A DNA stretch of 64,000 nt from a virus (IMGVR_UViG_3300014208_000031:103665-167664); one strand, 5' to 3'; shown: positions 12,486-15,751, counted from the first letter of the stretch. Translations and numbers: made by a program. Notes: generated from the sequence alone by a model not told the origin.

Positions 12486-12737
12486 TTAAAGACGATATTC
12501 TGGTTTTTTAGGAGTATTTTCTTCTTGTCCGGGCGGCTGCGGAACTCCAAATCTAAACATTTGTTGAAATTGCTGTTGAAGTAACTGCTCTTGAGAAACT
12601 TCCTGCTGAATTATCTCAGGTTGATTGGAAGATTTGATAAATTGAATTGTGATATTTTCAATTGACCAAAACAATGCAACAAGTATTATTGTTAAACTAA
12701 TATAAAAAGCTGATTTATTTATTGATTGTTCAGTCAT
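12486..12737 (-). CDS. single-TM membrane protein with Gln-rich tail
   Basis: AFYISLTIILVALFW helix; ATG 12737 preferred. Confidence 0.65.
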   Translation of the reverse strand: MTEQSINKSAFYISLTIILVALFWSIENITIQFIKSSNQPEIIQQEVSQEQLLQQQFQQMFRFGVPQPPGQEENTPKKPEYRL

Positions 12738-12738
12738 A

Positions 12739-13347
12739 TTATTTTGTTTTCTCTGGTTCTTTAGGTTGAATTTCACCCGGCGTTAAATTATAAAACATAT
12801 ATTCTTGTTCTAGACTTTCTGAGCCGCCGCCCTTTTGACCACTTTCTTTGTCTCCCGGCTGGCCTTTTCCTTTGCCTTTGCCTTTTCCGCCCGATTTACC
12901 ATTTTTAGTTAATTTTCCAGTAACTTTTTGACCTTTTTGTAATTTTTCCATTACTTTTTGAAGTTGCTCATGTAAATTTCTAGAATAAGGTAATCTAAAC
13001 ATTCTAGGTTCGTTTTTGTCGCTTTCGTATTTTAACATTTTAAAAAATTGATTGTCGTAATTACTTTTTACACTATCTAATGTAAGATAAATTGCGCCTT
13101 TTTGACCTAAATTTTTATTTGGTTCTTTGATATTAGCGGCGACAATCGTTACAACTTCTGGCATACCACTATCGTCCGCCGCCCAGCCGAGGAAACTGTC
13201 TAGGCCGGAAAATACTCCAACCGTGAACAAGCAAAAGAGTGAAGTCATTAAAATCTTAAAAATCGCGTGGACTTTTGACTCAACTAATAACCAAAAAATT
13301 ATTCCGCCGAGAAAAAGAAGGCTGAAATAGATTGAAAAAGGTATCAT
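12739..13347 (-). CDS. two-TM membrane protein with Gly/Lys-rich tail (third gene of the MotA/ExbD-like module)
   Basis: Two N-terminal hydrophobic helices, PRMFRLPYSRNLHE, GGKGKGKGKG tail. Confidence 0.7.
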   Translation of the reverse strand: MIPFSIYFSLLFLGGIIFWLLVESKVHAIFKILMTSLFCLFTVGVFSGLDSFLGWAADDSGMPEVVTIVAANIKEPNKNLGQKGAIYLTLDSVKSNYDNQFFKMLKYESDKNEPRMFRLPYSRNLHEQLQKVMEKLQKGQKVTGKLTKNGKSGGKGKGKGKGQPGDKESGQKGGGSESLEQEYMFYNLTPGEIQPKEPEKTK

Positions 13348-13348
13348 A

Positions 13349-13588
13349 TTAATCTAATCCATCTAAATAATTATTATGAATATGAACTCTTTCTCGAAAA
13401 TTTTTAATCAATCTTAAAAAATCTTCTTGACCGCTTGTAAACATAAAGTTTAAAATTAGTTCTAAGCCAAATCTATTTTCCCAAACTTGACTAAATCTAA
13501 ACATTTCTTGACCATCATATTCAATAATATAAAATCTATCAAAATATTTAATTAGGAATTTCCCTATTTTACAATTTGGCGCTCTCAT
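13349..13588 (-). CDS. hypothetical protein
   Basis: Packed ORF inside the membrane module. Confidence 0.55.
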   Translation of the reverse strand: MRAPNCKIGKFLIKYFDRFYIIEYDGQEMFRFSQVWENRFGLELILNFMFTSGQEDFLRLIKNFRERVHIHNNYLDGLD

Positions 13589-13592
13589 ATTT

Positions 13593-14207
13593 TTATTGTT
13601 CGGCGGATTCTGCCCCGCTAATTACTGCAATTTTCGCGGGTAATTCATTTGTCTCGGTAACTTCTCCATTTTTATCAAATTTAAATCTAAAAAATGTTTC
13701 TTCGTCTCCAGAATGATTAAATACTCTTTCTTTAACAATTATTTCTTTAAATGGTTTGATTTTGACTAATTTAACTTTTACCGTTAATGGCCCGGTTTCG
13801 CCCGGATACTTTCTGTAGCAATGTCCATTAACTATATATTCACCTTCTTTAGTTCCTCTAATTGATATAATTTCTTCGTTAATTTTAACTATTGTTCCGT
13901 CAGCGCGCCGATCTGAACTAGCGCCCAAGTCATCCCTCTTTAAAGCAAATAAACTTCCTTGCCCTCCTTCGCGTCGATTGAACCCGACAATATTCCCGGC
14001 GCTGTCTTGCGACCAGAGATCGACATCAGAGGAACTTTCTGGATTCCACGTCATAACAATTTCATATAATTCAGTTAACTGAATTGAACTATCATTTTTT
14101 TTAGTAATAGAGCTAAATGCAAGAATAAGGATAAAAACAAGTAAAATATTTGTATGGTAATCAACAAAGGGAATAAGATTAGGTCTAACCTGTCTATAAG
14201 TTCTCAT
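13593..14207 (-). CDS. ExbD/MotB-like TM anchor fused to a YfaP/DUF2135-like beta domain
   Basis: IPFVD..NILLVFI TM with conserved Asp; MTW..DVDLW..DDLG..NEEII..GEYIVN. Confidence 0.6.
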   Translation of the reverse strand: MRTYRQVRPNLIPFVDYHTNILLVFILILAFSSITKKNDSSIQLTELYEIVMTWNPESSSDVDLWSQDSAGNIVGFNRREGGQGSLFALKRDDLGASSDRRADGTIVKINEEIISIRGTKEGEYIVNGHCYRKYPGETGPLTVKVKLVKIKPFKEIIVKERVFNHSGDEETFFRFKFDKNGEVTETNELPAKIAVISGAESAEQ

Positions 14208-14218
14208 GTTTTATTTAA

Positions 14219-14692
14219 TTAACGGCTTTCATCATTTTTTAAATTTCTACTAACAATAAATAATTGAGATGAAAGTAAAATAGTACATATTAGTGCAAAA
14301 ATCGTAGTTATTAACGTTCTTCCAGTTCCCGCCATTAGCTGTTTCAAAAACTCTGCCGTGTCTCCGCCCTGCGCGAGTGGCAAGGCTTTAACGATTGTGA
14401 AGCAAAGTCCCCCGGTCGTTCCGAGCAAACCGAGCAGCAGGAAGGTTTCTGACATGAAATAAGCTGGTTGTAATCTATGAATATGGCTTTCTGTATCTAG
14501 AGGATTTTTGTCAATTAACCAAGATATTCTTCCTAGCTGAAATGAAAATATTACATATAAAATTAAACAAACTAAGGCTATATATGAGGCGTCGTGTTCT
14601 AACATGTATTGAAAAACGCCCTGATAAAAGCCTCCTACCGAGGCGGTGAAAATAATAGCGTTAATCACAAACCAGCGAGTAAATGTTTTCAT
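14219..14692 (-). CDS. MotA/TolQ/ExbB proton-channel family protein
   Basis: Four hydrophobic segments; LLGLLGTTGGL and LITTIFAL signatures. Confidence 0.75.
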   Translation of the reverse strand: MKTFTRWFVINAIIFTASVGGFYQGVFQYMLEHDASYIALVCLILYVIFSFQLGRISWLIDKNPLDTESHIHRLQPAYFMSETFLLLGLLGTTGGLCFTIVKALPLAQGGDTAEFLKQLMAGTGRTLITTIFALICTILLSSQLFIVSRNLKNDESR

Positions 14693-14693
14693 A

Positions 14694-15695
14694 TTAAGTA
14701 TTCTTGCTTTTTCTTGTTTCTAGTGGTAATCCCAGTCTTATTTTAATTTTTTTGGTTAAATAAGAATTAAGATTGACGATTCGCGCAGATTCTTTAAAAG
14801 ACTTTCCAGAGTCCAAAAGTTCTTTTACTTTTTCAAATTTCATTTCTGCTTTTTCATAATATGTTATATGGTTAACATTAATGTTGTCCCATTTCCTCTT
14901 CATAATAGGAAGATTGAGTTTTATCGCACATTTCTTTAGCTCCCTAAGAATCGGGAACTTATGCATAATCAAAATTATACAATTGTCTTTTCGATTGGGT
15001 GGAGAAACGCGAACAGTTAAATTAAATATTGATTCTATCTTTTCTTTTAGAGCTGCAAAAAAATCGCCCCAATTTTTATGACAACAAACCTGTATTACTA
15101 CAGTGTTATTTTTTTTCTTATGAATGCATCCGTCGCCATCTATCAAACCAATTAAAAAAGATAAAAATAAGTCATTGGGTAAACTTTTATAAAACTGGAA
15201 GTTTTGTGGTGGATATAGTGTTTTATTCTGCTGTAAGTCAAATTTATCCTGAATTTTAAAATAGTTTTTATTATCGTTTCCCTGTAATGAAGACTGCACC
15301 GAATATTTTATTTCATTTTTATATTCATGCGAATGTTTGTGTGAATAAAAATTAAACTTAACATTTTCAAAAGCATTCTTTAACCATTCGGTATCTTTTT
15401 CATTTACCGAAATACAAATTCCGCCAGACTTAGTAAAACATCCATCAGCCGCGATAAAACCCATTTGATAATAAGCTAACGGGGTTTCTAGTAAAAGGTT
15501 ACTTAATTCACATGTTCTATTATATGCTTCGGTGATTTCGGGATTCTTTTTTAAGCCTAAACGACGTGCTCTTTTATGAATTGCAACTACAGATCGGTCG
15601 GGGAATAATTTAGTTAATTCTTGATGTGTGGCATCAAAATAGAATTTTCTTAATGTGTTGTCTTCTTCTGTTGTATAGTCTGGATTTTTTGCCAT
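14694..15695 (-). CDS. LAGLIDADG homing endonuclease with N-terminal HTH
   Basis: MGFIAADGC and LIGLIDGDGC motifs. Confidence 0.85.
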   Translation of the reverse strand: MAKNPDYTTEEDNTLRKFYFDATHQELTKLFPDRSVVAIHKRARRLGLKKNPEITEAYNRTCELSNLLLETPLAYYQMGFIAADGCFTKSGGICISVNEKDTEWLKNAFENVKFNFYSHKHSHEYKNEIKYSVQSSLQGNDNKNYFKIQDKFDLQQNKTLYPPQNFQFYKSLPNDLFLSFLIGLIDGDGCIHKKKNNTVVIQVCCHKNWGDFFAALKEKIESIFNLTVRVSPPNRKDNCIILIMHKFPILRELKKCAIKLNLPIMKRKWDNINVNHITYYEKAEMKFEKVKELLDSGKSFKESARIVNLNSYLTKKIKIRLGLPLETRKSKNT

Positions 15696-15723: not shown

Positions 15724-15751
15724 ACTATATCCTTTTGTTTTGGAAAGTCAA
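15724..15751 (-). promoter_or_regulatory. promoter: TTGACT-N16-TATAGT overlapping AAAGGATATA motif
   Basis: Intergenic, 30 nt upstream of the endonuclease gene. Confidence 0.5.

Follow-up and report, generated by a model that had tools for sequence, protein, structure and literature searches.

Does a phage build an ion-driven motor of its own in the membrane of its host, and if so, with which partners? The question is raised by a group of genes in an uncultured phage, IMGVR_UViG_3300014208_000031. Its IMG/VR record has 167,664 bp and is rated complete by CheckV. We have studied its last 64 kb (positions 103665–167664 of the record); these 64,000 nucleotides are called here the window and all positions given below are counted from its first letter. 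From 14692 to 12486, on the minus strand, the window contains five close-packed genes which overlap or are separated by 1–11 nt. A preliminary description of the same sequence had placed four membrane proteins in this interval and read them as a phage-encoded relative of the MotAB, ExbBD and TolQR motors with atypical partners. The four proteins are all there, on that strand. We will show that three of them, p1, p2 and p3, form a unit which is conserved in many phages and also in bacteria, and that the first two are related at the family level to the A and B subunits of motors of known function. These 5:2 ion-driven machines drive flagella, gliding, Ton-dependent import of nutrients, the Tol-Pal system of envelope integrity and Zorya defence.

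The channel subunit and its partner

We will start with p1 (14219–14692, minus strand), a protein of 157 amino acids which would be the channel or A subunit, of MotA/TolQ/ExbB type. It has four predicted transmembrane (TM) segments, three of them clearly hydrophobic and a weaker one at the N-terminus, and it carries the motifs GLLGTTG and LITT. Its relatives are best seen with the family: 49 homologs were gathered from protein and locus searches and 40 of them match the Pfam family PF01618, with a best E value of 2.1e-10. The same family is carried by 21 of the 30 Atlas clusters nearest to p1. When the family profile is compared with the PDB, its matches are limited to chains of MotA, TolQ, PomA, ZorA and ExbB. 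The best one is MotA (8gqy, E 2.2e-5); 6ykm and PomA (8brd) are also found. The alignment spans the GxxGT and TT helices, which are the two C-terminal pore helices.

Five residues of p1 are invariant in the 49 homologs: D34, G88, T92, G95 and T130. Two of these, T92 in GLLGT and T130 in LITT, lie within the GxxGT and TT segments aligned to MotA. In TolQ (T145 and T178) and ExbB (T148 and T181) such threonines make a polar ring that lines the pore around the Asp of the B subunit (PMC12215075). By the alignment T92 and T130 correspond to this ring. A peculiarity of p1 is its small size: the sole cytoplasmic loop has about 25 residues (54–82), the chain ends right after the fourth TM segment and the cytoplasmic domain is absent, which sets it apart from all its characterised relatives. 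This absence marks p1 as a minimal variant and is not an argument against homology. Its sequence family indicates that p1 is a divergent, minimal member of the MotA/TolQ/ExbB family, an assignment which is weak on the single sequence but solid at the family level. Among the A subunits met in our searches it is the smallest of its kind.

The second protein, p2 (13593–14207, minus strand, 204 amino acids), would be the B subunit. It has a basic N-terminus (MRTYRQVRPN), the motif IPFVD and a single TM helix (residues 11–32) with the N-terminus inside; D16 is found near the cytoplasmic end of this helix. We have compared 120 homologs, 98 of which have an N-terminus. Position 16 is D in 94 of them and E in the other four, so that it is acidic in all 98. 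The family profile has the N-terminal consensus tpfiDvl, which is aligned to the segment of ExbD around its essential Asp; the other helix matches of this profile in the PDB are MotB and TolR only. The ExbD family itself (PF02472) is matched by 16 of the 120 homologs. In 87 of the 88 loci of a first set and in 78 of the 80 loci of a bacterial set p2 is preceded on its strand by a p1 homolog, directly in most cases; both sets are described in the next section. A MotAB-type complex of p1 and p2 is in our view quite likely.

The soluble part of p2 is another matter. An AlphaFold model built from the 120-sequence alignment (pLDDT 83) has a beta-sandwich in residues 46–195, about 12 residues past the helix. 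It shows neither the periplasmic fold of ExbD/TolR nor an OmpA-like peptidoglycan-binding domain, and no OmpA-like domain is found in the whole 167.7-kb phage genome. The modelled sandwich is closest to TerD: a VIA comparison gives Z 9.9 for 2qz7_B (132 aligned residues, root-mean-square deviation 3.7) and Z 8.7 over 140 residues for 2kxt, the next-ranked match having Z 6.1, and Foldseek finds TerD with E 1e-3. According to the model the soluble part of p2 has the TerD fold, a similarity at the fold level only; a search of PDB sequences with the p2 profile gave no TerD chain.

At the profile level a different name is obtained. The p2 profile was compared with hhalign to a VIT-TPR-DUF2135 protein of 993 amino acids from a Burkholderiales genome (G457, L173:640–3621), with a probability of 97.2% and E 4.7e-11. 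The 146 aligned columns correspond to residues 823–975 of that protein and span its Pfam match to PF09906 (919–966). On p2 itself Pfam finds neither DUF2135 nor TerD, and NCBIfam has no model for it. By this profile comparison the sandwich of p2 is to be considered a homolog of DUF2135. The preliminary description was right in several respects here. It had recognized a short four-TM relative of MotA/ExbB by its GLLGT..G and L.TT signatures, it had attributed to the helix of p2 the Asp of ExbD, TolR and MotB, whose loss is not seen in any of the 98 homologs with an N-terminus, and it had called the soluble domain YfaP/DUF2135-like.

Six residues of the p2 sandwich are invariant in the 120 homologs: D61, D63, D92, E112, R117 and G122. 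A motif W..D.DLW..DP.G is common to p2, to the Ca2+-binding jelly-roll of Tk-subtilisin and to PPC domains. The acidic cluster, taken together with the TerD fold, suggests a putative metal site of the Ca2+ type.

In 12 of 201 sampled Burkholderiales genomes there are weak matches to the p2 domain only, eleven of them within open frames of about 1,000 amino acids.

The third subunit and the distribution of the trio

The third protein, p3 (12739–13347, minus strand, 202 amino acids), has several distinct parts. Its model (pLDDT 80) starts with a TM hairpin (4–23 and 28–52), followed by a small beta-rich domain with one helix (65–148), a tether rich in Gly, Lys, Asp and Glu (about 150–180) and a short C-terminal strand. 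The tether is disordered (pLDDT about 50 or lower), and its length and composition vary across 55 homologs. The C-terminal motif F-Y/H-x-L-x-P...K (LPxP..K) is conserved from phages to Sphaerotilus, where it reads RDLPAPQLPEK. Other conserved residues are found in or beside the hairpin: W19, K31, G54 and W55. The hairpin has a basic loop and is followed by an acidic sequence, so by the positive-inside rule the soluble part of p3 is probably periplasmic. The tether is an extended low-complexity spacer such as TonB and TolA have, an analogue of their Pro-rich spacer and not its equal. The hairpin has no SHLS motif and no His. Pfam finds no TonB_C or TolA_C domain in p3 or in its 55 homologs, nor is there a TonB_C domain in the phage genome.

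We could not find a name for p3 in Pfam, in PDB sequences, among known folds or in the Atlas, where its clusters are unnamed. Foldseek gives only weak OB-like matches (SilF, SSB and PltB, E >0.1) and the VIA list is filled by helical hairpins. A search for fusions of p3 among proteins of 474–2000 amino acids found none. A complex prediction for residues 40–204 of p2 and 52–202 of p3 had a score of 0.00, which weighs neither for nor against binding.

The three genes stay together in many genomes. We fetched a first set of 88 loci through p2, 80 from IMG/VR and 8 from assemblies (a single bacterial metagenome-assembled genome, MAG, contributed three of the latter), so that the set is mostly viral, and ran the p1 and p3 profiles over them. 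The order p1-p2-p3 on the same strand is found in 72 of the 88; most of the others are truncated after p2. This conservation of order demonstrates that the genes are real and not chance open reading frames (ORFs). A marine phage clade (L012–L042, for example L026:5593–9895) has a looser arrangement: p3 lies 0.3–4.3 kb downstream of p2 with variable small genes in between, and p1 stays upstream of p2, directly in most loci.

The p2 gene is widespread in viral sequences, with at least 189 IMG/VR contigs which encode it. An exhaustive profile search gives 2,406 clusters at 50% identity for E values up to 1e-3, and 658 at 1e-30. In cultured phages it is rare: 29 of 50,697 records, all of them Rhizobium or Sinorhizobium phages, and always annotated as 'hypothetical protein'. 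These were reached with p2 alone; blastn with the whole region and tblastn with p1 gave no match in cultured phages, and no close cultured relative of our phage was found. Rhizobium phage P10VF is one of the carriers. In Rhizobium phage RHph_N34 the homologs of p1 and p2 are gp145 and gp146, and the next gene, gp147, is not detected by the p3 profile. The temperate Sinorhizobium phage 16-3 has all three homologs, p038, p040 and p042, a p3-like gene included. In this phage (L089:1720–4608) the trio is interleaved with the small ORFs p039 and p041 and is preceded by p036, annotated as a periplasmic trypsin-like serine protease.

The trio is not phage-specific. A pattern scan with one genome per species confirmed at least 549 bacterial loci; 80 of them were kept for study, and the trio is colinear in 78 of these. 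This part of the preliminary description has to be changed: the relationship to the known motors holds by homology, conserved residues and gene order, whereas the restriction to phages does not. The comparison of neighbourhoods in phages and bacteria which it had proposed gives the same trio order in both. Bacterial isolates with the trio belong to Sphaerotilus (S. mobilis among them), Piscinibacter/Ideonella sakaiensis 201-F6, Noviherbaspirillum, Azohydromonas, Rubrivivax and Caldimonas. It is also found in MAGs of marine Alphaproteobacteria, Gammaproteobacteria, Verrucomicrobiota, Rokubacteria, Binatia and several candidate-phyla groups. Its prevalence is low: full-length p2 is present in 6 of the 201 Burkholderiales genomes and in one of 301 genomes from the phylum of the small-genome MAG. 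In a tree there is a clean split between the p2 sequences of viruses and those of bacteria, with 4–5 changes of label; the two sets were sampled with different queries, so we draw no direction of transfer from it.

Bacterial loci often have additional genes beside the trio. A fourth gene, which we call X5 (about 259 amino acids, no family), follows p3 in 53 of the 80 loci. In 39 of these 53 it has a lipobox-like motif near the N-terminus, and its product is predicted from this to be a lipoprotein. NCBIfam has no model for p1, p2, p3 or X5 of Sphaerotilus. The operon of Burkholderiales is longer and starts with genes of the Ped type. Its order is a PqqB-like metallo-beta-lactamase, PQQ_ABC_ATP (TIGR03864), a PQQ-associated beta-propeller (TIGR03866), PQQ_ABC_bind (TIGR03863), the PedC permease (TIGR03861), p1, p2, p3 and the lipoprotein. 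In Sphaerotilus mobilis (L119:1408–7893), and also in L164, L096 and L147, the trio lies within or beside such an ABC system with a PqqB-like gene and is followed by the lipoprotein gene. The same four ABC-system genes are found divergently upstream of the trio in marine Alphaproteobacteria and flanking it in a Gammaproteobacteria MAG. Four of the Ped-linked genomes have a single PedC-type permease above the cut-off, and it adjoins the trio. Pseudomonas putida needs the homologous PedA1A2BC transporter for its lanthanide-dependent growth (PMC6839425). Other surroundings are of a different nature. In a soil Alphaproteobacteria MAG (L107:1353–4675) two BPD_transp_1 permease genes and an ABC ATPase-like ORF are directly upstream on the same strand, and in Verrucomicrobia and the small-genome MAG the trio lies amid unrelated metabolic and housekeeping genes.

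Surroundings of the trio in the phage genome

Two of the five close-packed genes do not belong to the module, which consists of three genes: p4 has a conserved counterpart in the nearest relative (locus L171) alone, and the other gene, orf79, is unique to this phage. The preliminary description had a module of four proteins. Of these p1, p2 and p3 stand, as does its picture of p3, a protein with two TM helices and a Gly/Lys-rich tail; its inclusion of p4 does not, and it had overlooked orf79. This ORF (13349–13588, minus strand) lies between p2 and p3, codes for a soluble protein of 79 residues and has no homolog in any fetched locus. In L171 p2 and p3 abut directly. L171 has an unrelated 73-aa ORF (L171:4775–4996) between p1 and p2, also without homolog in the fetched loci, so that small unrelated ORFs sit at different junctions of the operon, p2/p3 in this phage and p1/p2 in L171.

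The last gene, p4 (12486–12776, minus strand), codes for a single-TM protein which has a Gln-rich region, as had been described. It is lineage-specific: it has 51% identity over 49 amino acids with the gene after p3 in L171 and no homolog in the other fetched loci. The ORF has 96 amino acids if read from a GTG at 12776 and 83 from an ATG at 12737. The latter, one base past the p3 stop, is probably the true start, because the comparison with the sole homolog points there.

Upstream of p1 there is a LAGLIDADG homing-endonuclease gene (14694–15695, minus strand; PF14528 with E 2.9e-6, phrog_4645 with E 7e-13), which ends 1 nt before p1. In L171 a LAGLIDADG-like gene is found downstream of the module. 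The position differs between the two phages and the endonuclease thus appears to be mobile around the operon. The only sizeable intergenic gap upstream of the whole run, from the LAGLIDADG gene through p1, p2, orf79, p3 and p4, has a sigma-70-type pattern (15724–15751, minus strand; TTGACT, 16 nt, TATAGT). Such patterns are weak, with 17 matches in the region and 15.8 expected, and we consider this one a candidate promoter because of its position alone. In the window the T4-type late motif TATAAATA shows no enrichment, nor does it occur upstream of the module on its strand.

The nearby genes code for ribonucleotide reductase, a DnaB-like helicase, a UvsX-like recombinase, exonucleases and homing endonucleases. 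The module is in the replication and accessory, or host-takeover, part of the genome and not in the virion part. ARAGORN finds no tRNA gene in the window, and PHROGs gives no usable match for p1–p4.

Comparison with known motors and a possible mechanism

The trio has most in common with ExbB-ExbD-TonB and TolQ-TolR-TolA. As in these systems, three inner-membrane components are encoded side by side. The A subunit belongs to the PF01618 family and its two pore threonines are conserved, the B subunit is single-pass and N-in, with the essential type of Asp at the cytoplasmic end of its helix, and the third subunit is membrane-anchored and has a long low-complexity tether in the periplasm. The bacterial trio is followed by a lipoprotein gene, as pal follows tolQRA(B). 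The differences are also clear. With its four TM segments p1 lacks the cytoplasmic domain and the conserved Pro kinks, in p2 a DUF2135/TerD-type sandwich replaces the alpha/beta domain of ExbD/TolR, and p3 has a hairpin without SHLS and a short C-terminal motif instead of TonB_C or TolA_C. No TonB-dependent receptor, TolB or Pal homolog accompanies the trio cluster.

MotAB and PomAB give the best sequence matches of the p1 profile and share with the trio the four-TM topology of p1 and the conserved Asp of the B subunit. They differ from it in several features: p1 has no large cytoplasmic domain between TM2 and TM3 for rotor engagement, p2 has no OmpA-like peptidoglycan-binding domain, there is no flagellar context and a conserved third subunit is present. 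ZorAB of the Zorya system is another 5:2 motor resembling MotAB and one with a link to phage biology, and with PADLOC p1 has weak matches to ZorA models (E 0.003 and 0.04). PADLOC also gave one PD-T4-4 match at chance level and no Zorya-type match for p2, p3 or p4. The trio lacks the long ZorA tail, the peptidoglycan-binding domain of ZorB and the genes for ZorC, ZorD and ZorE, and here it is carried by a phage.

The closest published concept is that of non-canonical TolQ-like transducers. Predicted force transducers which combine TPH-vWA proteins with TolQ-like subunits have been described by bioinformatics, and their function is not known (Mol Biol Evol 2025, PMC12204202). As in the trio, which is likewise predicted, a TolQ-like pentamer would have a non-canonical partner whose transpore helix keeps the Asp and whose extracytoplasmic domain is different. 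Those systems use vWA domains, however, and have no third hairpin subunit; the words 'TerD' and 'beta-sandwich' are absent from the text of PMC12204202 and 'phage' appears only twice. The DUF2135 domain of p2 is nevertheless present at the C-terminus of VIT-TPR proteins too. By structure the match of this domain is TerD. TerD is a soluble, cytoplasmic protein, whereas the sandwich of p2 is fused to a motor-type helix and would face the periplasm. We searched the literature for phage with MotA, ExbB or TolQ, for TerD with ExbB or ExbD, for pelagimyophage and for lanthanide with ExbB or MotA, and found no description of the trio. The preliminary description knew of no characterised function for this arrangement and we have found none in print either. 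The link of the trio to PedA1A2BC-type genes in three proteobacterial classes, the profile-level homology with DUF2135 and the prediction of a lipoprotein are new.

How could the three proteins work? A ring with a central pair of helices has been solved for MotAB, ExbBD, TolQR and ZorAB. By homology p1 would form a pentameric ring and p2 a central dimer, with Asp16 of its helix protonated from the periplasm, in a 5:2 assembly which would rotate as in the known motors. The p2 sandwiches would sit atop the ring just outside the membrane, since the linker has only about 12 residues. As p1 has no cytoplasmic domain, the work would have to be delivered on the periplasmic side. We suppose that p3 plays the role of TonB or TolA: the motor would be the docking site of its hairpin, and by means of the flexible tether the LPxP..K motif would reach an envelope partner, for which the lipoprotein encoded downstream is a plausible candidate in bacteria. 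In the Ton and Tol structures the helix of TonB or TolA is docked at the periphery of the ring, and TonB binds the ExbD dimer through a short strand (PMC12215075); by analogy the C-terminal strand of p3 could bind in a similar way. In the phage the genes lie in the replication/host-takeover region. The trio is probably expressed in the infected cell, and the proton-motive force would then drive an envelope process for the phage.

Taken as a whole this architecture, a minimal ion-driven inner-membrane motor of the MotAB/ExbBD/TolQR class with an output subunit of its own, seems to us rather probable. A broader proposal can be made only tentatively, and we would hold it more doubtful than not. 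In it the trio is a further functional class of 5:2 ion-driven motors, self-contained, with a minimal stator, a DUF2135/TerD axle and a tethered hairpin transducer. Thousands of phage lineages would place it in the membrane of their hosts, where it would drive an envelope process belonging to the phage, and in Proteobacteria it would be coupled to a lipoprotein as well as to lanthanide uptake by the PedA1A2BC pathway.

Several observations weigh against a motor of this kind. Taken alone, p1 matches PF01618 with E 0.19 and 11.9 bits, below the Pfam cut-off of 22.9 bits, and the conserved Pro kinks of TolQ, ExbB and MotA are missing from it. The helix matches of p2 are individually weak (E 0.4–2), although consistent in direction. 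As its hairpin has no SHLS and it has no TonB_C or TolA_C domain, p3 cannot dock in the manner of TonB/TolA. A lipoprotein-type gene follows p3 in only 2 of 67 phage loci. Finally, the trio is present in MAGs of Saccharibacteria, Harrisonbacteria and Parcubacteria. Such small-genome candidate-phyla bacteria are generally thought to lack an outer membrane, which argues against an obligatory target in the outer membrane.

Other explanations start from the same observations. The neighbours of the trio in Burkholderiales, marine Alphaproteobacteria and the Gammaproteobacteria MAG, together with the four genomes whose sole PedC-type permease adjoins it and the need of P. putida for PedA1A2BC (PMC6839425), could mean that the trio is an accessory for metal uptake. 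It would work with PedA1A2BC-type importers of lanthanides or calcium and with pyrroloquinoline quinone (PQQ)-dependent dehydrogenases; phages would carry it as an auxiliary host gene, whose copy boosts or hijacks the pathway. The metal would be handled by the acidic TerD-like domain of p2, where D61, D63, D92 and E112 are invariant and whose fold is Ca2+-binding in TerD according to the titles of entries 2kxt and 2lge. We regard it as rather unlikely: no phage locus has Ped genes, the contexts in Verrucomicrobia and candidate phyla are unrelated to Ped and the ABC system of the soil Alphaproteobacteria is of another type. The Ped-linked cases come down to about three independent ones, because most of the loci are from related Burkholderiales.

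The reduction of p1 to a channel core without cytoplasmic domain, in genes of the accessory, host-takeover region, is also what one would expect of an ion channel or a sensor of the proton-motive force with no mechanical output. It would tune the membrane potential for superinfection exclusion or time lysis, with p3 as the link to cell-wall hydrolysis; the Atlas model of p3 is similar to one Atlas cluster, which consists of phage lysozyme proteins of 297 amino acids (TM-score 0.52 by the query and 0.38 by the cluster row). Against it, the longer p3 homologs of the fetched loci contain no lysozyme or other domain, no recognisable lysis genes adjoin the module, and hundreds of bacteria have the trio as a chromosomal operon without a lysis programme. 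For a bare channel the conserved tether and C-terminal motif of p3 and the large extracytoplasmic domain of p2 would be superfluous, and we find this explanation improbable. The weak PADLOC matches of p1 to ZorA could in turn point to decoys or poison subunits of the host TolQR, ExbBD or ZorAB, able to disable Zorya defence or Tol/Ton-dependent entry. Yet the trio is self-contained, keeps its own A, B and third subunits as a colinear unit and is also a bacterial chromosomal operon. Its identity to TolQ, ExbB and ZorA is very low (E 0.004–0.3 even with the family profile), and the ZorA tail, the peptidoglycan-binding ZorB domain and any OmpA-like domain in the phage genome are missing. An interference of this type is very improbable. 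The preliminary description had suggested superinfection exclusion, interference with Tol/Ton or Zorya and lysis timing as possible uses of the complex; none of them is favoured by any result obtained here.

If the trio is indeed a motor, it would be another, large branch of the 5:2 ion-driven motors, in which two of the three proteins have no Pfam, NCBIfam or PHROG name. As the smallest A subunit we have met, p1 could be used as a simple model for the structure of the motor core. The trio is carried by cultured, tractable phages and by cultured bacteria, so that what it powers is directly testable. Its link to the Ped genes in Proteobacteria suggests a concrete hypothesis about the first steps of lanthanide uptake, which still await explanation.

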